In this document: one piece after another, positions 9,702-60,219 of the stretch
Numbering within the stretch: the stretch's first letter is position 1
Layout of the letters: the number at the start of each line of letters is the position of its first letter
DNA from: a virus
Lineage: Duplodnaviria; Heunggongvirae; Uroviricota; Caudoviricetes
IMG/VR virus record: IMGVR_UViG_3300029305_005988
Span: 59,096 to 123,095 of that record
Length of the DNA stretch: 64,000 nt
Strand: one strand, 5' to 3'
Program-made: the position numbers and the translations under genes
The notes under the pieces: model-generated
The model's database searches: none
Told to the model about the DNA's origin: nothing
The model's input: only the letters and a program-made list of their open reading frames with translations

Positions 9702-10274
9702 TTTAGAGATGTCTTCGCCCTGCTCTTGACGATAAAAAGCATTAGCTGCTTCAGACTCAGATATATGTTCTTCAAACATAATTTGGCGCCAACGTTCTAG
9801 AATCTATTGATCAAGAGGTTCGTATGTGCTATACCATACCCAGCGCCTAACGCCATTAGATTCTCCATATTCATCAAATACGGGACCAACATAGCGCTTA
9901 CTTACACCCTGTACATTATCATGCCCATACTTCTCTCTGCCAAAAGCGCATAACGCTTCACGAGTAGTTTTAGCTTTGCTATTAGGCTTAAACTCAGTAC
10001 CAAGCGCAGCAATAGTAAACATCTTGTAATCTTCTTGTTTTTGCGCCGTAGAAATTAAATTCTTGCGCGGTAAAGGTTGATAGGTGCCATAAATCTCATT
10101 AATTTTAATACGAATTGGGCGCCCATCCAATAATTCATAGTCATAGAAGTTGCTAATATGTTCTAACAACTCTTCTCTACGGGACTCCCATTGATTCTTT
10201 TTAATACCTGTCAATAGCCAGAATTCTTTTTTAAAGTCATAAATGTGTCCTACTTCAATTTGCATATTATTCAC
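9702..10274 (-). CDS. hypothetical protein; in-frame TAG at 9804-9806 (157 aa to TAG, ~190 aa if read through to TAA 9702)
   Basis: ORF 9804-10274 plus 34 open codons after TAG; RBS aaaggagtgaataat. Confidence 0.45.
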
Positions 10275-10459
10275 TCCTTTCTTAATTGATAAATAGCAAC
10301 TTCTCCTGAAAATTTGTCCTTATCTATAATATATATAGGGACAAAAATTAGGGTAGAAGTTTCTCAGGAAGACTTCTTCCTATTCATATTTATATTAAAA
10401 AAGCAATAGATAAATTAACTAATTTTGACCAAGCGCCGAACCTCGATTTATACTTCTTA

Positions 10460-10590
10460 AACCTGGACCCGCGCCAAAAAAGAGGTATGCGTTAGCATAC
10501 CCCTAGGGCGCCGATCTCTCCTTTATATCGACGCCCTCTCCTTTATCTCCTAGTCCATAGTATTATTAACCTGGACCGGCGCTTACATCA
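10460..10590. repeat. direct repeats aacctggacc(c/g)gcgc x2 and ctctcctttat x2
   Basis: seen in intergenic region of minus module. Confidence 0.4.
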
Positions 10591-10945
10591 ATCCTTTGAA
10601 GAAATCTTCATCATTAAACTTCTCTTGCATCTTCAATAGCTGAACATACATAGGGATCATCTTCTCCATCTTAATGATTGCGGTCTCCAGCTCCTTGATA
10701 TCTTCTTCAGTCCACTCTTCTCCATCTTCAAAGAGGTCAAATGCCTCAGTATATGCGAGAACTGCATTAATCAAATAGGCGCGGCCTTCTTGGAGAAGAT
10801 CTTCTTTACTCTTTTGATTTGCAGCAGCTTCTTGCTCTGCGCGCAATGCTTCTTCTTGTCTAGCTTTTTCTGCGCGGATGTCGGCTAGCGTCTTTTCAAT
10901 TTCCTCTTCAGAAGCTCCATTCCAGATCATTTCTTCAATATTCAT
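10583..10945 (-). CDS. hypothetical acidic coiled-coil protein (120 aa)
   Basis: ORF; AT-rich-class promoter on minus strand at ~10955-11010. Confidence 0.5.
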   Translation of the reverse strand: MNIEEMIWNGASEEEIEKTLADIRAEKARQEEALRAEQEAAANQKSKEDLLQEGRAYLINAVLAYTEAFDLFEDGEEWTEEDIKELETAIIKMEKMIPMYVQLLKMQEKFNDEDFFKGLM

Positions 10946-10954
10946 TAGTTTATA

Positions 10955-11010
10955 TCTCCTTTACTTTTCTATATATATTATATCATATTTTTTATATTAT
11001 TTCAATAAGG
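10955..11010 (-). promoter_or_regulatory. minus-strand promoter (ttgaaataatataaaaaatatgatataat)
   Basis: reverse complement matches second promoter class. Confidence 0.45.
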
Positions 11011-11111
11011 AAGACGAAGACGAGGGATGGGAGATGGTGGTTCTGGAGTCGGTTGCACCACACATCCACACTCTCTTATGCTCTCTTATATTTTTTTATA
11101 TTTTCTTATAA

Positions 11112-11372
11112 TTATAATACAATCTCCCACCACTTTGTATCTTCACTTAATATTCCTTCTTCTTGCAATCTTACTGTATACCAATATCTTGCATCAATTT
11201 CTTTTAACATCTCTTCTCTATCCACATTGTTTTCAATCATATCTTCTAATCTTTCTATCCATTTATTCTATTCTTCTACTATTACCACTCCTGCATGACT
11301 TAAACAATTAATCTAATCTTCATATTCCTTTTTTGCTTCTGGATATTTCTCCAACAACTCTTTTAACATCAT
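11112..11372 (-). CDS. hypothetical protein (86 aa) with 2 in-frame TAG
   Basis: RBS aaggagggttatagaatgatg; MMLKELLEKYPEAKKEYED*INCLSHAGVVIVEE*NKWIERLEDMI...; ends TAA. Confidence 0.45.
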
Positions 11373-11386
11373 TCTATAACCCTCCT

Positions 11387-12099
11387 TAAAAATTAAATCC
11401 AGCAATTTTCTTCTTTATCTCATCCTCATCTTGATCGTGGACGCAGTCCACGGGAGGGATAGACGAAGTCTTTCCCGACAAATTCTAATTATAATCATAA
11501 TTCTAATTATAATCATAATTCTAATAAGGAAACTTTGGAAACTTGGAAACATTTCCAGTTTCCTTAATTCCATCACAACTTTCCAAACTTTCTTGGAAAC
11601 TTTCAGAAACATTATCTACAATTTCCATATTTCCTAATGTTTCCAAACTTTCTTGGAAATTTCCAATGTTTCCAGAAATTTCTGGAAACTTTCCTAATGT
11701 TTCCTTATTTTCCAGTAAATGTGGAAACTCTGTGCGGATTTTTGTAAACATTTTTGATACTGCTGGCGGCTGAACTCCAAGCTCGCGGGCAATTGCCGCC
11801 TGTGTCATACCACTATTTTTCATTTCAATAATTCTACGATATTTCTCTTCAGAAGCAGCTATTTTAGCATCGTACCTATTCTTGCTTTGCGCAATTCTAT
11901 CTACATATCCTTCAAGAGCATCTTCAATATTCATATCATCACTACTAATATCTCCAGTAAGTATAGCTTCTAAAAAACTAATTGCATACTCTCCACCTTT
12001 AACAGGGTCTCTTTGATACCACTTCTTTGCCGTTTCAAACATCTTTCCATATACAATACCACTTTTTCTTACAGGATTGTTTTTAAACTCTTTAATCAT
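11387..12099 (-). CDS. HTH-containing protein (MTQAAIARELGV) with repetitive C-terminal tail; TAG at 11521-11523 (core 11521-12099 = 192 aa)
   Basis: ORF 11521-12099; if TAG is sense, extends through 18-bp tandem repeats (QNYDYN x2) to TAA abutting next RBS. Confidence 0.5.
11461..11520. repeat. 18-bp tandem repeat aattctaattataatcat x~3
   Basis: seen directly. Confidence 0.7.
11530..11700. repeat. repeat-rich block (ttccaaactttcttggaaa / tttccagaaatttctggaaa variants)
   Basis: multiple direct/inverted copies seen; encodes SFQESLE-type repeats. Confidence 0.6.
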
Positions 12100-12123
12100 T
12101 TCCGATACCTCCGATCCCTTATT

Positions 12124-12300
12124 TTAAACCTAAGACAATTTGCGCATAGCCTCTTGTAACTCAAGACTATCTTCAAATACATAATTATCAAAATAAGGCT
12201 TCTTCTCGTCAGGTACCACTCTAATAATCTTAAATCCCAACTTGCGCAATTCATACGCCATTTTTCGAGTGTAAATCACTCTTTCATTCATTTGATCCAT
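12124..12300 (-). CDS. hypothetical small protein (~58 aa); TAG-GTT-TAA at 3' end
   Basis: MDQMNERVIYTRKMAYELRKLGFKII...; starts overlapping previous TGA. Confidence 0.4.
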
Positions 12301-12484
12301 TTCCGTTTACGCGGCGCAAATAGTTCTCTAATTGCTACTTCACCCAAGCGGCAGGCGCATCCCTGTTGATAAACTTATAAAGCTAATCAGGATTATCTAA
12401 TTTTGCCTCTTGCGCAATCAACTTATAAGTATAACCTTTTACGCGCATCTCCTTTAACTAAAATATTATTTCTTCACGAGTCAT
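12288..12484 (-). CDS. small HTH protein (65 aa) with 3 in-frame TAG
   Basis: MTREEIIF*LKEMRVKGYTYKLIAQEAKLDNPD*LYKFINRDAPAAWVK*QLENYL...; RBS gaaaggagttagaaatg. Confidence 0.45.
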
Positions 12485-12509
12485 TTCTAACTCCTTTCAC
12501 TATTATATA

Positions 12510-12580
12510 AAAATTAAGGTAGTAATTGTATCTATTTTTGTCCAAATTTTTTACCATAATACTACCTTAATTTGCCAATT
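12510..12580. repeat. inverted repeat aaggtagta...tactacctt (9-bp arms)
   Basis: seen; possible operator/terminator between minus genes. Confidence 0.4.
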
Positions 12581-12745
12581 TTTCGACGATATGTTCTTTT
12601 CATGTTTTTTCTTATCTCGTCATCTTTAATTGATCTGCAACAATCTGTTGTTATTCCACCTTTTTTCAAAAGCAAATTCAATTAAAATCGTAACAAAATC
12701 GTGTTGGTTTGAAATGCGCCTAATCTTGCCCATTGGCGCCTTTTA

Positions 12746-13102
12746 TTAACAGCCATAAGTCTTCTTTATATCATGAGTAGCATATTCCAAATGGTCAGTC
12801 ATTGCGCGAATATTTGAAAGATCAAACTGTGTAACAACCTCATCTTCATTCTAATCTAATCGCCGCTCTAAAGCATTTACTCTATCCACTAACTTATCTA
12901 CATTAGCTTCAGCGCTAATTAATCTCCAAATCAAATCTCGTAAATCATAATCAGCATCTCCAATGTGAATGATAATAGTCTGCTCTCGAAGAATAGATCT
13001 TGGAAGACCACTTAACATCTCATAATCAATCACTTCTTGTTCACATGTAATATCAACAGGCTAAGACATAAAAATCTCTTTATCAAAACTATCTATCATC
13101 AT
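12746..13102 (-). CDS. hypothetical protein with 2 in-frame TAG (ORF 12851-13033 extended both ways)
   Basis: MMIDSFDKEIFMS*PVDITCEQEVIDYEMLSGL...RRLD*NEDEVVTQF...; ATGA overlap with upstream gene. Confidence 0.4.
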
Positions 13103-13515
13103 TCTACCTCTCTTTTATAGTGTAGTGTTTTAAGCGCCGATCGTAGCTCAGAGCATTCTTTTTTAGGCACAAAATTCTTCTTAAGGTCATTGATTTGCGC
13201 ATCTATCCTCTTAATTTCTGTAATAAGGCTATCAGTTATATTTTCAATAGCATAGTCATTAGCCTTAATAACTCCACTACAATACAAATTACCGCTATTC
13301 GCACTAGCTATTCCATAAGCGGTGTTGCTTCCTTCAGTTGCTAAATCAAAAGTACAATCAACCTCCGTCGCAGAGTCCGCGCTGAGACTTAAACTGCAAT
13401 CTTTAATATATCCCTTCATTACCTCATCACCGTTTGCACTATAACAAGCAACCGAGTAGGGTCTATTAAAACTATCTCCAAACCATGCTTCATTTGTTTT
13501 CTACCAAATAGCCAT
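13099..13515 (-). CDS. hypothetical protein (138 aa) with TAG at codon 5; C-terminal LKTLHYKREVE motif
   Basis: MAIW*KTNEAWF... joins ORF 13099-13419; C-terminus shared with 32256-32477. Confidence 0.5.
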
Positions 13516-13516
13516 T

Positions 13517-13994
13517 ATTTACCTCCACTCTTTTCGCTACAAATTCCAATATTTATCATATAATCCAATAACCCCAACTGTTTTATAATGGTGCGCTCGG
13601 CGCCTTCAGGCAGCTTGTGGTCAAAAAATAATTTAATTTCATAGTTATCTCTTTCAAATGGCGACAATGCTTCAACTTCTCCCTGCTCATAATCAATAAC
13701 TAAAAGCTAATCTCCATTATCGAAACAGGTAATCACTTTTCCATCTAATTGAAGCGCACTTTTTATTCCAATTTCAGCTTTAGCATGTGCCTCTATATCC
13801 ATTTGCGCAAGGTCTTGAATATATTTACTGCCTTTTGCGCCAATCATAATGTATTTAGTTGGAGTATATGGTGTAAAATCTATGCTTTCTTTCTCGCAAA
13901 GCCGCTATAGGCGCCGATTCTTCACTATTAGTCGCCCATAGTCAAACCCAATATATGTCAATATCAAAAATAAAAACAATCCCGTCCAGAACAT
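13517..13994 (-). CDS. membrane-anchored hypothetical protein (~159 aa) with 2 in-frame TAG
   Basis: MFWTGLFLFLILTYIGF... hydrophobic N-terminus; RBS aaaaggagaagcagatg. Confidence 0.4.
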
Positions 13995-14109
13995 CTGCTT
14001 CTCCTTTTATCTCTTTAATCTTTTATACACTTTAATTATACAATAAAATTAAAATAAAGTCAAGTGTTCCTTCCCATCAGCACCTTTTCAATTACCTTTT
14101 ATTTTCTAA

Positions 14110-20417: not shown

Positions 20418-20425
20418 TTCATATA

Positions 20426-20498
20426 GGGAATTAGTTTAACAGTAGAATGACTGTCTCCAAAACAGTAGGCTGCGGGGCAGCACCGTAATTCCCTGCCA
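20426..20498 (+). ncRNA. degenerate tRNA-like (Trp CCA-type anticodon arm, no canonical T-arm)
   Basis: acceptor gggaatt/aattccc 7/7, stem actgt/acagt, loop ctccaaa; T-region replaced by ctgcggggcag. Confidence 0.3.
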
Positions 20499-23075: not shown

Positions 23076-23201
23076 GGAGTGGTAGCCCAACAGGCAGAGG
23101 CAATGGACTTGTCTGATGTTCGGTAACCTAGACTGGGTCAGCACCAGTATCAGGCACCAAAAATCCATCAAGTGAGGGTTCGAATCCCTCTCACTCTACC
23201 A
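23076..23201 (+). ncRNA. 126-nt tRNA-like gene with 55-nt insertion in anticodon loop
   Basis: acceptor ggagtgg/tcactct, D-arm gccc..ggc, anticodon stem atgga/tccat enclosing 55 nt, T-arm gaggg/ttcgaat/ccctc, CCA; own upstream promoter. Confidence 0.4.
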
Positions 23202-23713: not shown

Positions 23714-23864
23714 CTTACCCGTGAGTAGTGGGGCTCTCGGCATCGCCAGTAAATAGCTACTCAAACTCCCAACGGTAGAGCAAATGACCAGAACTAGGAG
23801 TTAAAATAAACGAGACTAAGGATGTGCGGCTGACAACCTACTGTCATTACATATGCGAGTTTAG

Positions 23865-23939
23865 TTCAGAAGTAGAATACCGCTCTGATAAAGCGGGGGT
23901 GCTTGGGGCAGTACCAAGAATTCGCACCAAAACTCAAGA
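23865..23939 (+). tRNA. tRNA-Ile(GAT) with non-canonical T-loop ggcagta
   Basis: stem ccgct/agcgg loop ctgataa; acceptor gcgagtt/aattcgc; CCA. Confidence 0.55.
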
Positions 23940-26199: not shown

Positions 26200-26275
26200 G
26201 CTGTGATAATTCAATTGGGAGAAGAGCCGGCGTCAAGCAGGCTAGTTGTGGGTTCGAGTCCCACTCACAGGTCCA
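26200..26275 (+). tRNA. tRNA with UCA-centred anticodon loop (cgTCAag, G33) - opal-reading/Sec-like candidate or mis-parse
   Basis: acceptor 6/7 (G1-G72 mismatch); T-arm gtggg/ttcgagt/cccac; CCA; anticodon stem gccgg/caggc with one mismatch. Confidence 0.3.
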
Positions 26276-42220: not shown

Positions 42221-42319
42221 TGGGGGGTCGCTTAATGGTCATAGCAGCGGTCTCTAAAACCGCCAGAGCCTACGGGTCTGCTCCGTAGTATGTGGGTTCG
42301 AGTCCCACCCCCCCAGCCA
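42221..42319 (+). tRNA. amber-suppressor tRNA(CUA), Gln-type identity, with 28-nt extra (variable) arm
   Basis: stem gcggt/accgc loop ctCTAaa; U1:A72, G73, tc-gct D-arm as in tRNA-Gln; variable arm ctacgg-gtctgct-ccgtag hairpin; T-arm gtggg/ttcgagt/cccac; CCA. Confidence 0.6.
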
Positions 42320-43049: not shown

Positions 43050-43901
43050 ATGACTTATACTCTAAAAAATGGTGAGACTATTGAATCTATACCAATTGGA
43101 CGTTCCTCTGTGATTATAGGAGAAAAAAGTCCAAGTGGAATGCTAACAGTTTGTGATCGAGGCCCTGCTCCTATTAGCGGGAGAGGCGCCACCGTAATCT
43201 GTCAATGCTAGTGCGGAAAATATACTCTTATTAAATTAAATGAGTTGCGAACAGGTAATACTAAATCTTGTGGTTGTTATGCACAAGAAAAAGCAAAAGA
43301 AAATGGTAAATATGTAGGCTCTTTACCTAAAAAAGCAAAAGATTATACACTTATAGATAATCCTTTTTATACTTTTATTCAAAGAACAGATAAAAAAGAT
43401 ATTTCAAATAGTTTCTTTTGGATAGTACAGTGTAAAAGATGCGGCAAACAATATGAAGAAGTGCCTTCTCAAATTATTTCTACCACTCGAGCACGAGGCA
43501 ATAATCCTTGTAGTTGTTGGAAACATTTAAGTAAAGGAGAGCAAAAGATCATAAATCTGCTTTTAAATAACAATATTTCCTTTTCACAACAAGTGACTTT
43601 TAAAGATTGCCTTTCTCCACTAGGGAACCCTTTAAAATTTGATTTTTTTATTGAACAAAAGTATTTAATTGAATTTGATGGTGAGTAGCATTTTTTACCT
43701 CAACAATTTGGAAATAACGAATCTGGAGAAGAAAAATTAAAGCTTACTCAAGAATACGATGCAATTAAAAACCAATGGTGTAAAAATAATGGAATTCCGC
43801 TAATAAGAATTCCTTATACTCATTACAGTCAATTAAATATTAAAGATTTATTATTAGAAACAAGTAATTTTATATTAAAGGAGAAAATAAATGCCGAATA
43901 A
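43050..43901 (+). CDS. Zn-finger + Vsr/DUF559-like (PD-(D/E)XK) endonuclease, HEG-like; 2 in-frame TAG (43209, 43686)
   Basis: RBS aaaaggagatgaataaaaatg; ...VICQC*CGKY...KFDFFIEQKYLIEFDGE*HFLPQQFGN...; ORF 43245-43688 is the middle segment. Confidence 0.5.
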
Positions 43902-45171
43902 AATTTATAATGAAGATAGTACGCAACATATATCTCCTCGAGAGTTTACACGAAAAAGACCTGGTACCTATTGTGGTTCAACCGAGTATAGCACACAGCT
44001 TATTCGAGAGCTATTCGCCAATGCTTTAGATGAACACAATATAGGCCATGGTAATGTAATTTCAATCGAGGCTGATACAAAAAAGAACTTGTATACGGTT
44101 ACAGACTTAGGACAAGGCTTTATCCCTGGCGCGCCAAGAGAAAATGGGGAAACAATGTTTTCAGAATGTTTCTCGGTTATTAATACTTCAGGCAAGTATG
44201 ATGATGCTGATGATTCGATCTATGGTGGAAGTGCTCTAGGACTCAATGGTATAGGCATGAAGTTAGTCTGTTACCTTTCAAGCTGGTCTCAAGCTACAAC
44301 AACCAATGGCAGCGGCAAGAGAGAAACAATTACCTATAAAGATGGTTTGTTTGAATCGCGTCAAATTACCGACGAAAAGAAAGATATTCACGGTACAACA
44401 ATTAGTTATCAACCAGATCCTCAATTCTTCCAGCATCAAGAAGCAAACTTTGACGAGTTGAGAAAGATGTTTACCGACATCGCCGCACTTTGCCCCATGC
44501 TTACTATTGAACTTACTGTTGACGGAAAAAAAGAAATATTCCACTCTTCAAGAGGTTTAAATGACTTGATTGATGCAAAAGTTGGTGATAATGAAATTCT
44601 TTCAAATCGTTTTATTGCGCGTAGAGAGTCGGGCGCAGATCTCTTTGATATTTGCTTAACTTATACTTCTAATTATTCAGAAGATGTAACGGGTTATGTT
44701 AATTTTGGTTTAACTGAAAGCGGCGTTCATATGACGGCTTTGAGAACTAATTTAACAAGACTAATTAATAAATTTGCGAATGATAAAAAGATGTTTAAAG
44801 CAGGAGAGTCAAATCTTACTGGACAGGAGCTCTCTGAAGGACTTGTAATTATTTTCAATCTTAAAGCAAAAAAGGTTGCTTATGATAGCCAGTCAAAAGT
44901 AAGAGTTGTTGACATTGATAAGACATTGATTAATCAGACTCTAAGTGAAGACTTTGCTCAATGGCTTGAGTCTAATCAAAAGGATGTTAAAATTATTATT
45001 GACAAAGCGCTAAGTGCTCGTAGAGCAAGAGAGGCTGCTAAAAAGGCGCGCGACGCGGCTCGAGGCGACAAAAAGAAAAAGGAAAAGGCGCTTAAGTTTG
45101 ACTCTAAACTAGCAGATTGTTATTCAAAGGTTCGCGCCAACTGTGAGATCTATGTAACTGAGGGTAAGTGA
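43891..45171 (+). CDS. gyrB: DNA gyrase/topo II subunit B, exon 1 (GHKL ATPase + transducer), ends inside TOPRIM motif
   Basis: GHKL ATPase motifs; ...CEIYVTEG then K-stop from intron. Confidence 0.8.
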   Translation: MPNKIYNEDSTQHISPREFTRKRPGTYCGSTEYSTQLIRELFANALDEHNIGHGNVISIEADTKKNLYTVTDLGQGFIPGAPRENGETMFSECFSVINTSGKYDDADDSIYGGSALGLNGIGMKLVCYLSSWSQATTTNGSGKRETITYKDGLFESRQITDEKKDIHGTTISYQPDPQFFQHQEANFDELRKMFTDIAALCPMLTIELTVDGKKEIFHSSRGLNDLIDAKVGDNEILSNRFIARRESGADLFDICLTYTSNYSEDVTGYVNFGLTESGVHMTALRTNLTRLINKFANDKKMFKAGESNLTGQELSEGLVIIFNLKAKKVAYDSQSKVRVVDIDKTLINQTLSEDFAQWLESNQKDVKIIIDKALSARRAREAAKKARDAARGDKKKKEKALKFDSKLADCYSKVRANCEIYVTEGK

Positions 45172-46273
45172 AAACTATTGCCCGAATCCTTTTTACCATT
45201 AATCAGTGGGGTCACAATTATTGTGGCTAACGGGGAAAGCTGACCATTACACAGATATGTCAAAATCTGTTTAGGTGAAGTCAATCCCGTGGCAAAATTT
45301 TAAAATTTTTAGGTCAAATCTTGATAAATTTCTTACTCTCACTTTCATATATAAATAGAAGGAGACAGAGTACTTCTAATATATTTGAAATAAGGAGAAT
45401 AATAATGATTGGAATTTACAAGTACACAAACAAAATTAATGGGAAACACTATATTGGATAGAGCATTAATTTAGAAATGCGCAAATATGCACATAAATCT
45501 TCTGCTTTTAATGAAAATGCTAAAGATTATAATGCTCAATTTCATCAAGCAATTCGTAAATACGGTTGGGATAATTTTGATTATGAAGTAATCGCAGAGT
45601 TAACCCCAGAAGAATATACGAAAGAAGGACTTGATGCCTTAGAAAGATATTTTATTAAATATTACGACTCTTTTCATAATGGCTATAATGCCACCGAAGG
45701 CGGAGATGATAATCCACTTAGGGCGCAAAAAGGCTCTGCCAATGGGCGTGCGCTTTTAACAGAAGAGGATGTTATTTATATTAGAGAATGTTATAATGCA
45801 CATATTCCTTTTAGAGAGGTTTATGCAGAGTATCAAGATAAAATATCTAAAAGAGGGCTTCAAAAAGTATGGTGGTTTGATACATGGAAAGATATCTATC
45901 CAGAGTATCATACAGAAGAAAATAAAAAATGGCATGCTACAAAAGCAAAAGCTAATGCTTCAGAGGTTGCCGCAAATAATAAACGCAGTTTTACCGAAGA
46001 AGAAGTTAAAAAAATGAGAGAAGAGTACGACAATGGAATGTCACCAAAGCAAATTTGGCTAAGATATGCACCAGAGAAAGCTTGGTCGACAGTTTATAAT
46101 GTTGTAACAAGACAGACCTATAAAGATATTTAAAATAAGCTGTATCGACTATCCCGAGTGAGATCGGGAGTAGAAATGTTATTGATACGCATTTCGAAAT
46201 AGAGGACACGATGATGACCTGACAAGTCGGAGTGAAGAGATAGTCAGTGCCTATAGAAATATAGGAGCACATG
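45166..46273 (+). mobile_element. group I-like intron in gyrB carrying GIY-YIG HEG
   Basis: 5' exon ends ggT, intron ends atG; splice restores YVTEG|DSASGN = TOPRIM EGDSA motif; candidate P1 pairing gggu/gccc. Confidence 0.55.
45405..46133 (+). CDS. intron-encoded GIY-YIG homing endonuclease with in-frame TAG at 45459
   Basis: MIGIYKYTNKINGKHYIG*SINLEMRKYAH...GYNATEGG; ORF 45477-46133 is its body. Confidence 0.7.
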
Positions 46274-46912
46274 GATAGTGCGTCTGGAAACCTTAAGTCA
46301 GCTCGAAACAATGAGTTCCAGGCTGTAATGCCAGTTCGAGGTAAAATCCTTAATTGTCAAAAGAATACGCTGGATAAGATCCAAAAGAACGCAGAGATTA
46401 TGACTATGATTGAGGCATTTGGTCTTAAAGCAGACCCTAAGACGATGAAACTTACCTATGACAAAGACTCACTGCGTTATGGCAAGATTATTATAGCTGC
46501 TGATGGAGATGCTGATGGTAGCCATATTCGAAACCTGTTTTATACTTTTATCTGGAACTTCTGTCCGCAACTTATTCAAGAGGGATATGTGTATGCTCTT
46601 GTAGCGCCGCTCTATAAGATTACGATGGGTAAAGATACTTATCTATATTTAAGAGACGATAAAGAATTGGCTGAGTTCCAAGAGAAAAATAGAGGAAAAA
46701 AGTATCAGGTCAATAGATTTAAGGGATTAGGTGAAATGTCAGAGGACGAGACTGAAATTCTTGTAGACCCAGGCTTAAGAGTGCTAAATCAGGTTGCGGT
46801 TGAAGAAGCAAAGAAAGCAGATGTCTTATTTGATCAATTGATGGGCGTTGGGGTTGCAGCGAGAAAGAAGTTTATTCAGGATCATAGCAAGGAGGCTAAA
46901 TATGGAGTATAA
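46271..46912 (+). CDS. gyrB: DNA gyrase/topo II subunit B, exon 2 (TOPRIM + tail)
   Basis: DSASGN...PVRGKILNCQKNT...IIIAADGDADGSHIRNL ~ GyrB EGDSAGGS...PLKGKILNVEKAR...IMTDADVDGSHI. Confidence 0.75.
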   Translation: MDSASGNLKSARNNEFQAVMPVRGKILNCQKNTLDKIQKNAEIMTMIEAFGLKADPKTMKLTYDKDSLRYGKIIIAADGDADGSHIRNLFYTFIWNFCPQLIQEGYVYALVAPLYKITMGKDTYLYLRDDKELAEFQEKNRGKKYQVNRFKGLGEMSEDETEILVDPGLRVLNQVAVEEAKKADVLFDQLMGVGVAARKKFIQDHSKEAKYGV

Positions 46913-52103: not shown

Positions 52104-52351
52104 AAGCTAACTATAACTTAACACCAGATGCTCCCGCGTCTCCAATGAATAGAGATCAGCGCAGAGCAATGCATGAGCGCCTTATGCCTAAAATCAAGCG
52201 CATTGTAGAACTTGAAAAGCAAATTAAAGCAGGTATCGACAAAGATGCTGCTGAAACAGAAATGAGCCAAATTGTAGAAAGCTGCACAATGGTGGAAATG
52301 TTCGCTATCGAAGATTATATCTATAATAAGAATCTACTTGACAATAAGTAA
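52100..52351 (+). CDS. hypothetical protein (83 aa)
   Basis: ATGA overlap. Confidence 0.45.
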   Translation: MKANYNLTPDAPASPMNRDQRRAMHERLMPKIKRIVELEKQIKAGIDKDAAETEMSQIVESCTMVEMFAIEDYIYNKNLLDNK

Positions 52352-52429
52352 ATTTTATTATATAATTATAATATCACAATAGCAGAATAAATCTGCAAAT
52401 ATTAAGATATAAAAGGAGATTTAAGGCAA

Positions 52430-52680
52430 TGGCACTTAAAGAAAATTCACTCGTAATTTTTAATTATGTAAAAGATCACAAGGATGAAGATATCACAGCA
52501 GCTGATATTGCATAGGCAACAAACATCCCTGTAAAATCAGTAAACGGTTCTATCACAGCAATGGCTAGACACCATGAGCTTATGTATCGTGAAGAGGTTC
52601 CTGTAACTGGCGGTAAGGTGAAATATATTCGCCTCACTGATAAGGGACTTGATTACGATCCTACGGCAGATGCAGAGTAA
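52430..52680 (+). CDS. winged-helix DNA-binding protein (83 aa) with in-frame TAG at 52513
   Basis: MALKENSLVIFNYVKDHKDEDITAADIA*ATNIPVKSVNGSITAMARHHEL...; RBS aaaaggagatttaaggcaatg; missed by ORF track. Confidence 0.45.
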
Positions 52681-52734
52681 TTAAAAAAGGAAATAAGGGG
52701 TAATTGAATAAATTACCCCTTAAATTGTAAAAAT

Positions 52735-53926
52735 GATAGCATTATGTGTAATATCAATTCTTCTTGGCGCAGGCGGTCTTGCTTATGGAGTATGGACTAA
52801 AGCCACATCTGGAAAGGTTAACCGCTATACAATAGAAGAAAATTAGAAACTAGAAGAACTCAATTAGTCATTACATGCAACTCGCAAAAGTCTAGAAGCT
52901 CAAAATGACTTATTGATAAAATCTAACAATGAAATTTCTCAAAGGTATGAAGAGAACTGTAAAAAAACAAAAAATTCTTACGACGAATTAAATCAATTAA
53001 CTCAATAGAAATTAAAGTTAATAGATGAAATTCAAATTAAACAAATTGAAAAAGCGGGAGTGGAAGCGCAAATCACTGCTTTAAGTAGCTCTGTAGAAAC
53101 AATGTCAGGCGACTTAAAGGTAGCTGCTCGCGCATCATTCGAACAATATTGTGATGCTCTTGATTATGAGTATAAGAAAAAAGAACAAGAGTTCGATACA
53201 GAAATAGATACTCTTGATCAACTATACTTTAATAGATTACAAGAGCTTGATGCAAGAGAAAAAGGATTAATTGAAGAGCGTAGACAAGATATTGAGATAC
53301 TTGCAAAACTATTCTATGATAAGCAACAATCAATGTCTAAAGAGTTGCAAGAAGAAGAAGCGGCAATGCGCGCCGATCTAGATTCAATTCGTAAAGAGCT
53401 AGAAAAAATTCGTGCAACTAAGGCCGCCGCGATGGAGGCACAGTTACGCGAAGAAGAAATTAAAAACAAAGCAACATTTTATACCCTTCAGCTTAATGAT
53501 GCAGATAAGCGCGATGTTGCATATCTTCAAAGCATTGAATATAACTTGCGCGAACCAAGACCTTTACGCATGCTTATATGGTCTACATTCTATCGAGATA
53601 AAGTCAATGACCTTGCGGCGCGCGTAGGCGCGTTGGGCGCAAGTGGAATATATAAGCTAACCCATATTGACTCTGGTATATCGTATATCGGTCAAGCTAA
53701 GGACATTAAAGAGCGTTGGGTAACACATGTTAAATGCAGCTTGGGTATCGACACCCCTGTAACAAGTCAACTCTATGCATTTACAAGAGAAAAGGGTATT
53801 GACAACTTTACTTTTGAAGTATTAGAGAAATGCAGTATAAATGAATTAAATGAAAAGGAGAAGTTTTATATCGACCTTTATCAAACATATGATTTTGGAT
53901 TGAATAAAACTCGCGGAAATGGATGA
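52735..53926 (+). CDS. TM-anchored coiled-coil protein with C-terminal GIY-YIG nuclease domain; 3 in-frame TAG
   Basis: MIALCVISILLGAGGLAYGV... then 3 TAG, joins ORF 53060-53926 (GIYKLTHIDSGISYIGQAKDIKERW). Confidence 0.5.
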
Positions 53927-54078
53927 AAGTAACAAGAATTGAAATCTCTCTTGAATGGGAGGATAGTGGCGAATTTGAGCATGAGACTTACGAAGACTCT
54001 TTTGACGATGCAATTCGCTACTTAAAGAAAATGAAAAAGAAATATCAAGAAAAAAATATGGAGGACGAGTGGGAATAA
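53923..54078 (+). CDS. hypothetical small protein (51 aa)
   Basis: ATGA overlap. Confidence 0.3.
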   Translation: MKVTRIEISLEWEDSGEFEHETYEDSFDDAIRYLKKMKKKYQEKNMEDEWE

Positions 54079-54275
54079 TGTTAGCTATGTGCCCAAAATG
54101 CCACTATGCAGCTCGTCCTATTCAGGTTGGAGACGAAGGCGGCCGCCGCCCTTATTGGGTAGTACAATGTTCTCATTGTTATTATGTGGCGGCTGACTAC
54201 GATGAAGCAAAGGTAGATTGTAGAGATGCAATAGAATTATGGAATAGAAAGGTAAATAAAGAAAATGGAATTTAA
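54078..54275 (+). CDS. Lar-family restriction-alleviation-like zinc-ribbon protein
   Basis: CPKCHY...YWVVQCSHCYY...AIELWNRK ~ Lar CPFCGG...WYVECTNCGA...AIAAWNRR (from memory). Confidence 0.5.
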   Translation: MLAMCPKCHYAARPIQVGDEGGRRPYWVVQCSHCYYVAADYDEAKVDCRDAIELWNRKVNKENGI

Positions 54276-54972: not shown

Positions 54973-55053
54973 TTTATTGACTTTTTATACAAAATTAATT
55001 ATAATATTTATATAAAATGAACAAATAAATAGAAATGGAGATAAATTAATTAA

Positions 55054-55458
55054 ATGACAAACAAAAAACAATTTATTCAAGAGATTGAAGAATTATTGGC
55101 TGATCGTTGCAAGACTTTTGGAGAAGATGGACTTTCAGAGGGCGCCCGCGCCTACTTTGAGCAGCTTAAAGCAACGCCTGAAAAGGAGAAGGCTCCTTTT
55201 ACAGAAAATGGCGCAAATGTTCTTATCTGGATGCAGGAGAATTATGAATCTTATAATAATATTCTCAAAGCAAAAGAAATTGGAGATGGGCTGTTTTGTT
55301 CTTCGCGCACAGTTTCTGGCGCAATGAGAAAGCTTGTTACGGATGGCTATGTGAGCAAAATAGAAGGAACTCCTACTTGTTATTCGCTTACCGAGCTTGG
55401 TATGAATGTGACAGTAGTTATTCCAGAAAAGAAGTCGAAAGAAGAAGAACTTGACTAA
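55054..55458 (+). CDS. winged-helix (MarR-like) DNA-binding protein
   Basis: SSRTVSGAMRKLVTDGYVSK. Confidence 0.5.
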   Translation: MTNKKQFIQEIEELLADRCKTFGEDGLSEGARAYFEQLKATPEKEKAPFTENGANVLIWMQENYESYNNILKAKEIGDGLFCSSRTVSGAMRKLVTDGYVSKIEGTPTCYSLTELGMNVTVVIPEKKSKEEELD

Positions 55459-55541
55459 ATAAAAAATTTTTGTTATAATAATATAGATATTGGACAAAAA
55501 TATTAAATAAGTAAAATAATTAAATTTAAAAGGAGAAAAAA

Positions 55542-56526: not shown

Positions 56527-57561
56527 ATGGCAGATTTTAACTTACTTGATATTCAACCTCACTAGGTTTCACGAGATATGCGCGGTTATTGCGTCTTCTT
56601 CTATGGAGACGCAAAGACCGGCAAAACCACTACCGCGACTAAATTCCCTAATCACCTTTTGGCAGCTTTTGAAAAAGGATATAATGCAATTCCTGGCGCC
56701 ATGGCACAGCCTATCAATAGCTGGTCTGAGTTTAAGAAATTCCTGCGCCAGTTAAAGAATGAACAGGTTAAGGCTAAATTCGAAACAATTATCGTAGACA
56801 CTGCAGATATTGCCTATGACTATTGTGAGAAATATATTTGCGCCAATGTTCAGCGCCCAGACGGTTCTATTGGAGTAGACAATATCGCAGATATTGGTTA
56901 TGGAAAAGGCTTTAAAATGGCGGCAAAAGAGTTTGATGATGCGCTCCGTTCAATCCTTCAAATGGGTTACGGTTTAGTAATTATCTCTCACGCGCAAGAT
57001 AAGACCTTTAAAGATCAGAATGGTAATGAATACAATCAAATTGTTCCAACTCTTGATAACAAGCCTCGTAATATTGTAAATCGTATGGCAGATATTATTG
57101 GTTATGCAAGAAATGTTGAAACTGAAAATGGTGAAAAAGATGTTAAACTCTTTATGCGCGGAACTCCTCGTTTCGTAGCAGGAAGCAGATTTAAATATAC
57201 ACCCGACTATATTGACTTCAACTATAATGCACTTGTTAACGCAATAGGCGATGCTATTGATAAACAGGCGGCTGAAGATGGAACTCAATACTTCACAGAT
57301 ACGGGATCTAATTTGCACACATTTGTTTCAAAGGAACTCGACTTTGACGAACTTATGATGCAGTTTAACTCAATGATTCAAGACCTTTCAATCAATAGTG
57401 ATGAAGAAACATTCAAAACCTATTGGCAACCTCGTATTAGCCAGTGTATAGAGAAGTATCTCGGCAAGGGGCAAAAAGTTTCTCAATGTTCTCGTGAACA
57501 GACAGAAGCACTTGATCTTATAGTTACGGAACTTAGAGATTTGATAAATACAGCTCAATAA
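56527..57561 (+). CDS. RecA-superfamily recombination ATPase (Sak4-like); in-frame TAG at 56563
   Basis: good RBS gaggtaagtaaaaatg at 56527; MADFNLLDIQPH*VSRDMRGYCVFFYGDAKTGKTT (Walker A); ORF track starts at internal ATG 56578. Confidence 0.55.
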
Positions 57562-57653: not shown

Positions 57654-58154
57654 ATGTCAGTAGTTGCAGTAAAAATTTATGCAGATAAAATTACAATAGC
57701 CGCAGATTCTATCATGTGTTCTGGTTATACCAATATTAATCATGCAAAAAAGTTTTCTAAACTCGTTGAAATAAATGATATGATTATGGGAACGGTGGGA
57801 ACTGCTAATGAAGGCAGTCTTATGTGGCTTTATATGAATACACATAAACCAAATGGAGCAACCGAAAAAGATATTCTTGAATTCGTTGCAGAATTTTCTT
57901 CTTGGAAAACAAAATATAATGACAACAATCAAATCAATAATTCTTATATTTTAATTTATCAAAATAAGGTATTCAGCATTAGCGGACTATTTGTTACTGA
58001 AATTGAGTCTTATTTAGCCATTGGCGCCGGTGAGGATTATGCGCTTGCGGCTTTATATTTAGGACATTCTCCGAAAGAGGCTGTTAAAGTGGCATGCGAT
58101 CTTTGCTGCTATGTTGCTGAACCCATTATTGAAATAGAGAAAAAGAGAGGCTAA
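57654..58154 (+). CDS. HslV/proteasome-beta-like Ntn peptidase
   Basis: MSVVAVK...ITIAADS ~ HslV TTIVSVRR..VVIAGDGQ; GAGEDYALAALYLG ~ GSGGNYALAAARAL. Confidence 0.45.
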   Translation: MSVVAVKIYADKITIAADSIMCSGYTNINHAKKFSKLVEINDMIMGTVGTANEGSLMWLYMNTHKPNGATEKDILEFVAEFSSWKTKYNDNNQINNSYILIYQNKVFSISGLFVTEIESYLAIGAGEDYALAALYLGHSPKEAVKVACDLCCYVAEPIIEIEKKRG

Positions 58155-58678: not shown

Positions 58679-60219
58679 GCAAAAGTAAATATGTAGATAC
58701 CGCCGCAATAATGCAAGTAATCGGCGCTATCTATATTCAACCTTCACTTTTAGATAACGAAAATTATCACTTCCATGAAGAGGATTTTTGTGAAGACTTT
58801 CATGTGACTCTTTTTGGAACTATATATAATCTTCATGCGCTCGGCGCCAAGGAGATAACTCTCAACGCAATAGAAGACTATCTTGCACAGCGCCCCAAGC
58901 GCCAAGCAATATATAAAGCGAATAAGGGCGCAGAATATCTTGAGCAGCTTAAAGAAGCTACACAATTAAGCGCTTTTCAGTATTACTATGATAGAGTTAA
59001 AAAGATGACGCTCTTGCGCATGTATAATGAACGCTGTGGAATGGATTTATCGTGGCTCTATGATATGGATAATATCTTCGATGCAAAGAAAAAACAAGCG
59101 CAAGAGGACTGGTTAGATAGCACACCTCTTGTAGAAATCGCAGATTTAATTGATAAAAAGATAGATGATGTTAAGTCAATTTATGTAGATAATTGCGAAG
59201 CAGATATTGTTCAGGCTGGCGCCGGTGTAGAATTGCTTCTTGAGCAATTAAAACAGAATCCTGAACTCGGTTACCCATTATATGGCAAATATATCAATAC
59301 TATTTTCCGCGGCGCGCGCTTGAAAAAATTTTACTTACGCTCAGCCGCAACGGGTGTTGGTAAAACGCGTTCAATGGTAGCAGATGCGTGTTATATTGGA
59401 TGTGGCTCTATGTATAGTATTGAAGAGCGCACTTGGATAAACACGGGTGAACCTCAAGCGACTCTTTATATTGCAACAGAGCAAGAGTTATCAGAAGTTC
59501 AAACTATGATGATAGCATTTTTGTCTGGTGTTAATGAGGAACATATTGTGACGGGTGAATATCTTGAAGGTGAATGGGAGCGCGCGCTCCATGCTGCGCA
59601 ACTCCTAAAGACTGGAAAGATCTATTTTGAAGCACTTCCAGATTTCTCGTTGCAAGACATTGAGAATGTTATTAAGAAAGGCATTAGAGAGAATGATATC
59701 AAGTATGTCTTCCACGACTATATCCACACTAGTATGAAGATTCTCGAAGAGATTACTCGAAGAAGCGGCGGTGTGCGCCTTAGAGAAGATAATATCCTCT
59801 TTATGATTTCCGTAAGACTTAAAGACTTGTGCAACCAGTATGGAATATTCATAATGTCTGCGACTCAGTTGAGCAATGATTATCACGAAGCAGAGGTTTA
59901 TGACCAAGGACTTCTTCGTGGCGCAAAATCTATAGCAGATAAAATAGATGCTGGATCTATTTTACTTGAAGCGACGGATAAAGATAAAGAAGCGCTGGCG
60001 CCTTTGGTTAAGCGTCTTGGGTGTGAGATGCCAGATATTAAGATGTCGATTTATAAGAATAGACGAGGTCGCTGGAAAAATGTTCTAGTTTGGATTAAAT
60101 CAGATCGTGGTATTTGTAGATTGGATCCGATATTTGTGACTAAATATAGCTATGAATTAGTTGATATAGAGGACTTTAAAATAAATGTAAAAAAGAGCGT
60201 TGATTTATCAGCGTTTTAA
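58675..60219 (+). CDS. dnaB: DnaB-like replicative DNA helicase
   Basis: N-terminal DnaB-like domain; Walker A SAATGVGKT; RecA-fold motifs. Confidence 0.7.
   Translation: MSKSKYVDTAAIMQVIGAIYIQPSLLDNENYHFHEEDFCEDFHVTLFGTIYNLHALGAKEITLNAIEDYLAQRPKRQAIYKANKGAEYLEQLKEATQLSAFQYYYDRVKKMTLLRMYNERCGMDLSWLYDMDNIFDAKKKQAQEDWLDSTPLVEIADLIDKKIDDVKSIYVDNCEADIVQAGAGVELLLEQLKQNPELGYPLYGKYINTIFRGARLKKFYLRSAATGVGKTRSMVADACYIGCGSMYSIEERTWINTGEPQATLYIATEQELSEVQTMMIAFLSGVNEEHIVTGEYLEGEWERALHAAQLLKTGKIYFEALPDFSLQDIENVIKKGIRENDIKYVFHDYIHTSMKILEEITRRSGGVRLREDNILFMISVRLKDLCNQYGIFIMSATQLSNDYHEAEVYDQGLLRGAKSIADKIDAGSILLEATDKDKEALAPLVKRLGCEMPDIKMSIYKNRRGRWKNVLVWIKSDRGICRLDPIFVTKYSYELVDIEDFKINVKKSVDLSAF

Follow-up and report, generated by a model that had tools for sequence, protein, structure and literature searches.

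SNIPE (PD-lambda-1) of E. coli provided the first demonstration of a membrane-tethered nuclease that senses foreign DNA by location and not by sequence (Saxton et al., Nature 2026; PMC13190303). Behind an N-terminal membrane helix the protein has DUF4041 and GIY-YIG domains, both in the cytoplasm, and it cleaves phage DNA as this is injected. It is toxic when the membrane helix is removed, the tether prevents cleavage of host DNA, and its conservation falls from the nuclease through the middle to N-terminal regions that are variable in length (PMC13190303). Here we describe a phage gene of similar layout, which lies in a 64,000-nucleotide stretch of a Caudoviricetes virus (the window; positions 59,096 to 123,095 of IMG/VR record IMGVR_UViG_3300029305_005988) and which we refer to as the nuclease gene. 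With TAG read as sense, the gene runs from an ATG at 52733 to a TGA at 53924-53926 (52733-53926, + strand) and comprises 397 sense codons, among them TAGs at 52844, 52865 and 53006 (codons 38, 45 and 92), with neither TAA nor TGA inside. The original prediction, made from the letters of the window, had proposed just such a single 397-amino acid (aa) open reading frame (ORF) with three TAGs at 52735-53926; the ORF and its TGA end are confirmed, but its start is the ATG at 52733, two nucleotides further upstream. Frame and stops, full-length homologs at 94-51% identity and purifying selection in all segments give us high confidence that membrane anchor, stalk, pre-nuclease domain and GIY-YIG domain are encoded by this one gene.

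The protein is predicted to begin with a membrane helix of N-out/C-in orientation at residues 2-21 (IALCVISILLGAGGLAYGVW; 52736-52795, +), as had been proposed and as is borne out by hydropathy, the best 19-residue Kyte-Doolittle window scoring 2.17 from residue 2 while no window elsewhere in the protein exceeds 0.85. No charge precedes the helix and a net charge of +3 follows just after it, compared with family means of -0.1 before and +1.8 after, and it is this positive-inside bias that predicts an N-terminal anchor with the stalk and nuclease in the cytoplasm. Residues 25-246 (52805-53470, +) form an amphipathic helix or coiled-coil stalk, whose sequence and length vary among relatives. Residues 30-246 contain no proline and three glycines, with E, L, K, Q and A abundant, their hydrophobic periodicity at 3.5-3.67 residues lies above that of nearly all shuffles (at 3.6, 0/2000 shuffles reached it), and AlphaFold2 models one helix across residues 3-246, with a predicted local distance difference test score (pLDDT) above 90 for residues ~60-210. 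The "about 250 aa" of coiled coil originally proposed is therefore a long helical, coiled-coil-like stretch as described, but of ~220 aa, which would measure roughly 30 nm when extended. Within it lies a conserved motif at residues 131-155 (ARASFEQYCDALDYEYKKKEQEFD; 53123-53197, +), in which R133, F136, Y139, C140, L143, Y147, E151 and E153 are invariant or nearly so and which is still recognisable in distant family members. The stalk is followed by a conserved pre-nuclease domain of 55 aa (residues 247-300; 53471-53632, +), a short strand and two helices that are confidently predicted to pack into a compact unit with the GIY-YIG fold; the modelled C-terminal fragment (residues 215-397, 183 residues) reaches a pLDDT of 93.8 and a predicted template modelling score of 0.85. 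This pre-nuclease domain matched no Pfam family and no PDB entry and was common only to two unnamed viral models. The C-terminal GIY-YIG domain (residues 304-395; 53642-53917, +) has the alpha/beta fold of its superfamily and is complete, as the original prediction had stated: PF01541 matches residues 304-385 with 31.4 bits against a cut-off of 22.6, all 95 of 95 family members match as well, and Y307, Y318, R328, H332, E376 and N391 correspond to Y6, Y17, R27, H31, E75 and N90 of I-TevI, six catalytic residues that are invariant or nearly so in 59 family sequences. The domain is therefore catalytically complete and, given also the strong purifying selection on the C-terminal module described below, presumably an active nuclease. 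As the protein stops two residues after this domain, it carries no DNA-recognition tail.

The same architecture recurs throughout a new, large and so far wholly unannotated phage protein family. A word-index search returned at least 455 relatives, many of them full length at 51-94% identity, and an exhaustive search with the C-terminal 183 aa returned 310 representatives of 50%-identity clusters at E <= 1e-30, so that the family comprises at least that many such clusters and is present on more than 500 viral contigs. In the best 150 of these matches nearly the whole 183-aa module is aligned, always at the C-terminus of proteins of ~280-435 aa. In all 16 distant members that were read, a membrane helix at the start leads into a coiled-coil-like stretch, and an N-terminal membrane helix is found in 230 of the 256 family members of at least 280 aa, the remainder being taken to be 5'-truncated gene calls. 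Relatives are encoded by 545 IMG/VR stretches; among 80 of these that were fetched, 36 hold membrane helix, stalk and module in an uninterrupted standard-code ORF, and others carry 1-16 TAGs, which in the heavily recoded ones are spread over the whole gene. Anchor, stalk and nuclease are thus not separate genes, since at least 36 standard-code relatives hold them in single ORFs, and the separate homologous genes that would have spoken against the proposed fusion were looked for and not found. In prokaryotic genome collections none of the matches fell on an isolate chromosome; all were on contigs of metagenome-assembled genomes that share the phage synteny, the bins being those of Clostridia, Bacilli, Mollicutes and similar groups. 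Judged by these bins, the hosts are probably Clostridia or Bacilli.

Among GenBank phages the whole C-terminal module was found in phAss-1 only, a gut phage of ~136 kb from the "Caudoviricetes code 15 clade" that reads TAG as glutamine and encodes suppressor tRNA-CUA genes (PMC10607447). Its homolog (326 aa, 8 TAGs) has the same architecture as the window gene, but its C-terminal module is only 33% identical and its neighbours are tRNAs and NrdD/NrdG. The homolog is unrecognised in PMC10607447 and stands in GenBank OQ749652 as two hypothetical fragments, an example of how standard-code annotation breaks up this gene. A further deviation is seen in the relatives L007, L009, L016, L019, L030 and L032, which contain in-frame TGA; in L007 it is codon 2, the resulting M-TGA-Y matching MWY of P0125, which indicates that TGA is tryptophan there. 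The family, and with it the phage clade, thus spans three genetic codes (TGA as tryptophan, TAG as glutamine, and standard). An ORF-coverage score for assigning genetic codes to the related loci did not discriminate between them and was dropped.

The nuclease gene occupies a fixed place in these genomes. A tblastn comparison of the proteins encoded around the gene in the window with 137 fetched loci revealed the recurring order GyrB-GyrA-LigA-83-aa winged-helix-nuclease-(235-aa)-134-aa winged-helix-YorF-Sak4-YorH-DnaB-primase, and the position of the nuclease between LigA/winged helix and YorF/Sak4/DnaB is kept in ~100 loci on uncultured gut and rumen phage contigs. Median identity to the window is 46% for the C-terminal module, similar to that of LigA (52%), YorF (46%) and YorH (44%), which indicates vertical inheritance, and the gene is a core gene of the replication module in a large clade of gut and rumen phages, as yet uncultured and with genomes of ~100-170 kb. 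Conservation is distributed very unevenly along the protein. Relative to L003, in which the flanking genes are ~80-90% identical, identity is 90% in the C-terminal module but only 28% in residues 1-120 and 36% in residues 121-221; DNA identity profiles have sharp mosaic boundaries within the stalk, and stalk length among relatives ranges from ~100 to 215 aa. For the C-terminal module the ratio of nonsynonymous to synonymous divergence (dN/dS) is 0.04-0.06 at a synonymous divergence (dS) of 0.5-1.3, so that its near-invariance reflects purifying selection, and recent horizontal transfer was rejected as its cause. The corresponding dN/dS values are 0.26 for the N-terminal coil and 0.3-0.75 for the membrane helix, and dS is unequal across gene segments, which fits recombination. 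Positive selection on the N-terminal half was also considered and found no support, dN/dS being below 1 where measurable and the comparison elsewhere saturated; the pattern is one of mosaic allele replacement.

We propose, tentatively, that the nuclease acts on DNA at the membrane and that its cleavage most plausibly serves, in the manner of SNIPE, to exclude the DNA of superinfecting phages or other DNA entering the cell. For direct comparison the SNIPE gene was recovered by joining the primer sequences from the supplement of the original paper and searching E. coli genomes. It encodes WP_109866709 (500 aa; E. coli 118UI, NZ_CP032515.1, 657401-658903), with Pfam matches to DUF4041 (PF13250, E = 1.2e-19) and T5orf172/MUG113 (PF10544, PF13455), and lies in a lambdoid prophage beside ren and the replication genes P and O; like the window gene, the bacterial prototype is thus carried by a phage genome and adjoins replication genes. 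Like SNIPE, the window protein has a single-pass N-terminal membrane helix that leaves almost nothing outside the cell (here a prediction from hydropathy and charge bias), an elongated helical cytoplasmic part, and a conserved middle domain directly before a C-terminal nuclease of the GIY-YIG superfamily. Both proteins are without a sequence-recognition domain, and in both the nuclease is the most conserved part and the N-terminal region the least conserved and variable in length. In the mechanism that we envisage, the stalk would pair two chains into a putative dimer, bringing together two single-site nuclease domains and so allowing double-strand cutting. The substrate would be chosen by location rather than sequence, as DNA appearing at the inner face of the membrane, and would most plausibly be a second phage's genome, or foreign DNA of another kind, during injection, resulting in superinfection exclusion. 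As the phage's own genome is inside the cell by the time the nuclease is synthesised, it would escape cleavage, and the TAG codons of this lineage may postpone synthesis further, until expression of the phage tRNA-CUA. The proposal in its most complete form, a core-gene analogue of SNIPE that arose by convergence in large lytic gut phages to destroy competitor DNA on entry and that in TAG-recoded lineages is held back by an amber-suppressor tRNA until the phage's own genome is fully in, is unlikely. If the nuclease does work as proposed, DNA targeting by location would have evolved convergently, and lytic phages would possess a new mechanism of superinfection exclusion; in the most complete form, spatial discrimination of self from non-self would be a recurrent invention, here of viruses against viruses, and stop-codon recoding would gain a concrete timing role for an early-region gene.

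Several observations weigh against a function in exclusion modelled on SNIPE. BLASTP of the window family against SNIPE gave no significant match, and hhalign of the alignments of the two families gave a probability of 26% over 37 coiled-coil columns only, none of them at DUF4041. No match to DUF4041 (E <= 1) or to T5orf172/MUG113 was found in any of 95 window-family members. In the PADLOC hit tables no PD-Lambda-1 model was hit by the window protein, and for the 95 members none stood among the 25 families with most hits out of 127; PADLOC-DB 2.0 presumably contains such a model. Genes for exclusion or defence tend to be accessory and variable, and here the nuclease is a fixed core gene of a replication and recombination module, a setting no less compatible with metabolism of the phage's own DNA. 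In Enterococcus phage VRE9_3, a cultured relative, YorF-Sak4-DnaB is present and the nuclease gene is missing from the syntenic place. The N-terminal half, furthermore, is under relaxed purifying selection with allele replacement (dN/dS 0.26-0.75) and positive selection was not demonstrated, and as the predicted extracellular part amounts to 1-3 residues, little surface is available for sensing an injecting phage from outside. Membership of the SNIPE family was rejected, BLASTP, Pfam, PADLOC and hhalign all being without a link, and on sequence grounds the window nuclease is an analogue of SNIPE in layout and not in ancestry. The nuclease of the window family belongs to the I-TevI-type PF01541 branch whereas that of SNIPE belongs to the T5orf172/MUG113 branch, and the middle domains differ. 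SNIPE is found as an accessory gene in Proteobacteria and in prophages of these bacteria, whereas the window gene belongs to the syntenic core of large uncultured phages with Firmicutes-type hosts, and while the function of SNIPE has been demonstrated, that of the window nuclease is one that we infer. The family thus presents a SNIPE-like layout built from another GIY-YIG branch and another middle domain, in abundant uncultured gut and rumen phages.

Of the alternatives, the one that fares best, although we still judge it rather unlikely, is a nuclease for the phage's own DNA metabolism that nicks or resolves intermediates at a membrane-attached site of replication or recombination. A model for such a site is provided by p16.7 of phi29, in which a membrane helix, a coiled coil and a DNA-binding domain serve to anchor replication to the membrane. 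Genomic position favours this alternative, the gene being a fixed member of the module that extends from GyrB/GyrA-LigA to DnaB-primase, as do its vertical inheritance with a conservation like that of LigA, YorF and YorH, the very strong purifying selection on its C-terminal module, and the presence among GIY-YIG enzymes of the structure-specific nucleases Slx1 and UvrC. Set against this, the absence of the gene from VRE9_3 indicates that the YorF-Sak4-DnaB machinery does not require it, the hypervariable and length-variable N-terminal half would be unusual for a housekeeping enzyme, and no replication or resolution nuclease is known to depend on a membrane anchor together with a stalk 15-30 nm long. 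If the gene did act in replication, it would represent a new kind of membrane-linked replication nuclease.

Degradation of host DNA during takeover of the cell, as by T4 endonuclease II, with the phage genome shielded by modification or compartmentalisation, appears improbable to us. An enzyme without a sequence-recognition domain, apparently expressed from a consensus host-type promoter (see below), would suit such a role, but a tether would hold it off most of the nucleoid, and in SNIPE the tether serves to prevent cleavage of host DNA (PMC13190303). Moreover, no DNA-modification gene was identified adjoining the nuclease. The 235-aa downstream gene had been considered as a ThyX-like DNA-modification enzyme and was rejected as such, having no Pfam or PDB match and matching only a PHROG of unknown function. 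T4 endonuclease II (DenA) itself is a small soluble GIY-YIG protein without membrane helix or stalk, and no sequence-level relationship to the window protein was found. Uzume (UzuA) and PD-T4-3 are defence systems that likewise consist of a single GIY-YIG gene. The window protein does not match the UzuA profile over its full length, aligning to positions 183-277 of 278 only, so that the 180 N-terminal positions of UzuA are left unmatched, as are the anchor, stalk and pre-nuclease domain of the window protein; no architectural description of Uzume was found in the literature.

A free-standing GIY-YIG homing endonuclease gene that has acquired an N-terminal extension is suggested by the nuclease domain itself, the nearest relatives of which are of the homing type (PHROG homing endonuclease families at E = 1e-13 to 1e-15, the PADLOC HEase model, and I-TevI), yet we give this origin only a very slight chance. 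The nuclease gene keeps one syntenic position in ~100 diverged genomes and its divergence follows the genome background, whereas o270 and o283, two nuclease-like genes of the window, occur sporadically and at scattered positions in related loci. It also lacks NUMOD, IENR1 or any other DNA-binding tail, such as is present in o270. Compared with free-standing homing endonucleases of the I-TevI type, the window protein ends without a linker or DNA-binding domain beyond the catalytic domain, which ~300 aa of anchor, stalk and pre-nuclease domain precede, and its gene is not mobile. A homing endonuclease identity was rejected on synteny and the missing tail. The membrane tether, which the original prediction had called unusual for soluble homing endonucleases, is indeed atypical of them, the window gene itself not being one. 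As for the two scattered genes, o270 (~45400-46133) encodes a free-standing GIY-YIG homing endonuclease whose YIG[Q]S motif contains a TAG, and lies between the parts of an apparently split gyrB (N-terminal part 43891-45171, Toprim/C-terminal part ~46232-46912, +). The gene o283 is a 283-aa Cys-rich ORF (43050-43901, +) with two TAGs and homologs at scattered places, and is probably another mobile endonuclease-type gene.

The weakest alternative, that TAG is a true stop and the region either a pseudogene or a gene for a 37-aa membrane peptide, then junk, then a second gene that begins at GTG 53060 and encodes a soluble nuclease of 288 aa, has an almost negligible probability: the standard code does split the region into ORFs of 37, 31 and 288 aa, the longest of them at 53060-53926, JGI gene calls include truncated forms (P0028, 288 aa) and the phAss-1 homolog is annotated as fragments, but the window encodes a tRNA-CUA, the stretch between the TAGs is under purifying selection, standard-code relatives have the identical architecture in an uninterrupted ORF, other conserved genes need read-through of TAG, and TAG terminates no confident gene.

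TAG is a sense codon throughout the genome of the window phage (code 15), as established by TAGs inside conserved genes, the absence of TAG terminators and a suppressor tRNA-CUA. The stops of 23 genes supported by homology or synteny comprise 12 TAA, 11 TGA and no TAG, and in the Sak4-like gene (56527-57561) a TAG at codon 13 is flanked by residues conserved in VRE9_3. Codons 29-120 of the nuclease gene, which include all three TAGs, have a dN/dS of 0.26 against two relatives and are therefore translated in this frame. The TAGs at codons 38 (52844-52846, +), 45 (52865-52867, +) and 92 (53006-53008, +) are all kept in the close relatives L001 and L005, and the more distant L003 has TAG at codons 36 and 44; the sense reading of codon 92 follows from the frame and from comparison with relatives. 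The suppressor is a tRNA gene at 42220-42316 (+; Rfam tRNA, 56.3 bits), in which the loop CTCTAAA, closed by the stem arms GCGGT/ACCGC, gives the anticodon CUA. ARAGORN lists no tRNA-CUA and calls "tRNA-??? (taaa)" at 42221-42319, misreporting a four-base anticodon. Read by eye, this tRNA combines a U1-A72/G73 acceptor end and encoded CCA with an extra arm of great length (stem CTACGG/CCGTAG, loop GTCTGCT), which is unusual for a glutamine-type suppressor.

Glutamine is the likely amino acid at TAG, including the three in the nuclease gene. In o270 the motif HYIG[TAG]S has TAG where the nuclease gene and its family alignment show the invariant Q321 of YIGQ, codon 45 lies opposite a CAA/CAG glutamine (Q45) in L003/P0069, and the U1-A72/G73 end of the tRNA is glutamine-like; pointing away from glutamine are one TAG opposite lysine in the alignment of the Sak4-like gene and the unusual length of the extra arm. 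ARAGORN additionally calls a "tRNA-SeC (tca)" of normal length at 26200-26275 (+), in which by eye G33 replaces U and the anticodon stem has a mismatch, and which is absent from the Rfam gathering-threshold list. It was rejected as an opal suppressor on these grounds and because many genes end in TGA, and is probably a pseudo-tRNA or a false call. Three tRNA-like genes found by Rfam were overlooked by ARAGORN (20425-20495, 23855-23926 and 23076-23198, +), one of which is 123 nt long and may hold an intron or insertion.

The suggestion that the gene is gated by its three TAGs stands in so far as the codons are present and their density is raised, but such gating is unnecessary for function, TAG being sense genome-wide, and it is not intrinsic to the nuclease family because relatives carry 0 to 16 TAGs. 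In the window the nuclease gene has 3 TAGs in 397 codons, whereas the other 22 confident early genes together have 2 in 7,102, a ~27-fold difference in density (Poisson P ~2e-4 in a post hoc test), and together with its upstream 83-aa partner it accounts for four of the five sense TAGs among the 23 early genes. From this concentration we raise the hypothesis that reliance on the phage tRNA-CUA could delay the winged-helix-nuclease operon relative to its neighbours.

The 83-aa gene (52429-52680, +) carries one sense TAG (52513-52515) and is immediately 5' of the nuclease gene in 98 of 133 loci. It had been predicted as a TAG-containing helix-turn-helix gene, of which the TAG and the winged-helix-like character stand, but the domain label is below the cut-off (HTH_27, E = 0.0098). 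Upstream of it lies a sigma-70-type promoter match (TTGACA-17 nt-TATAAT, 12/12; 52338-52366, +), which is likely to be the promoter of the winged-helix-nuclease unit but which we treat as a lead only. The total count of promoter-like sites in the region was not above chance. The three best matches, 52338-52366, 54977-55005 (11/12) and 55451-55479 (11/12), all on the + strand, are all intergenic and just 5' of coding-strand genes, a placement that suggests that host RNA polymerase may transcribe the replication module. Between the 83-aa gene and the nuclease start is a 12-bp hairpin (52694-52722, +; -20.2 kcal/mol, z = -4.1), which scored as a terminator for the minus strand only, and no Shine-Dalgarno sequence was found between this hairpin and the nuclease ATG. 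Downstream, a 51-aa very acidic ORF (53923-54078, +), conserved in the closest relatives only, overlaps the nuclease stop via ATGA, which suggests translational coupling; its product could be a small partner or inhibitor of the nuclease. The following gene (54069-54275), originally described as Lar-like anti-restriction, does have a weak Pfam match of that kind (E = 0.0063), but at 17 bits this falls short of the cut-off of 28.6. Further along, between Sak4 and YorH, a 166-aa protein (57654-58154, +) matches an HslV-family peptidase PHROG (E = 2.4e-20), which is unexpected in a replication module. Finally, the block at 10000-14000 has a strongly inverted GC skew (-0.28 to -0.32) and a GC content of 35%, lower than its surroundings, and probably represents minus-strand genes or a foreign insert.

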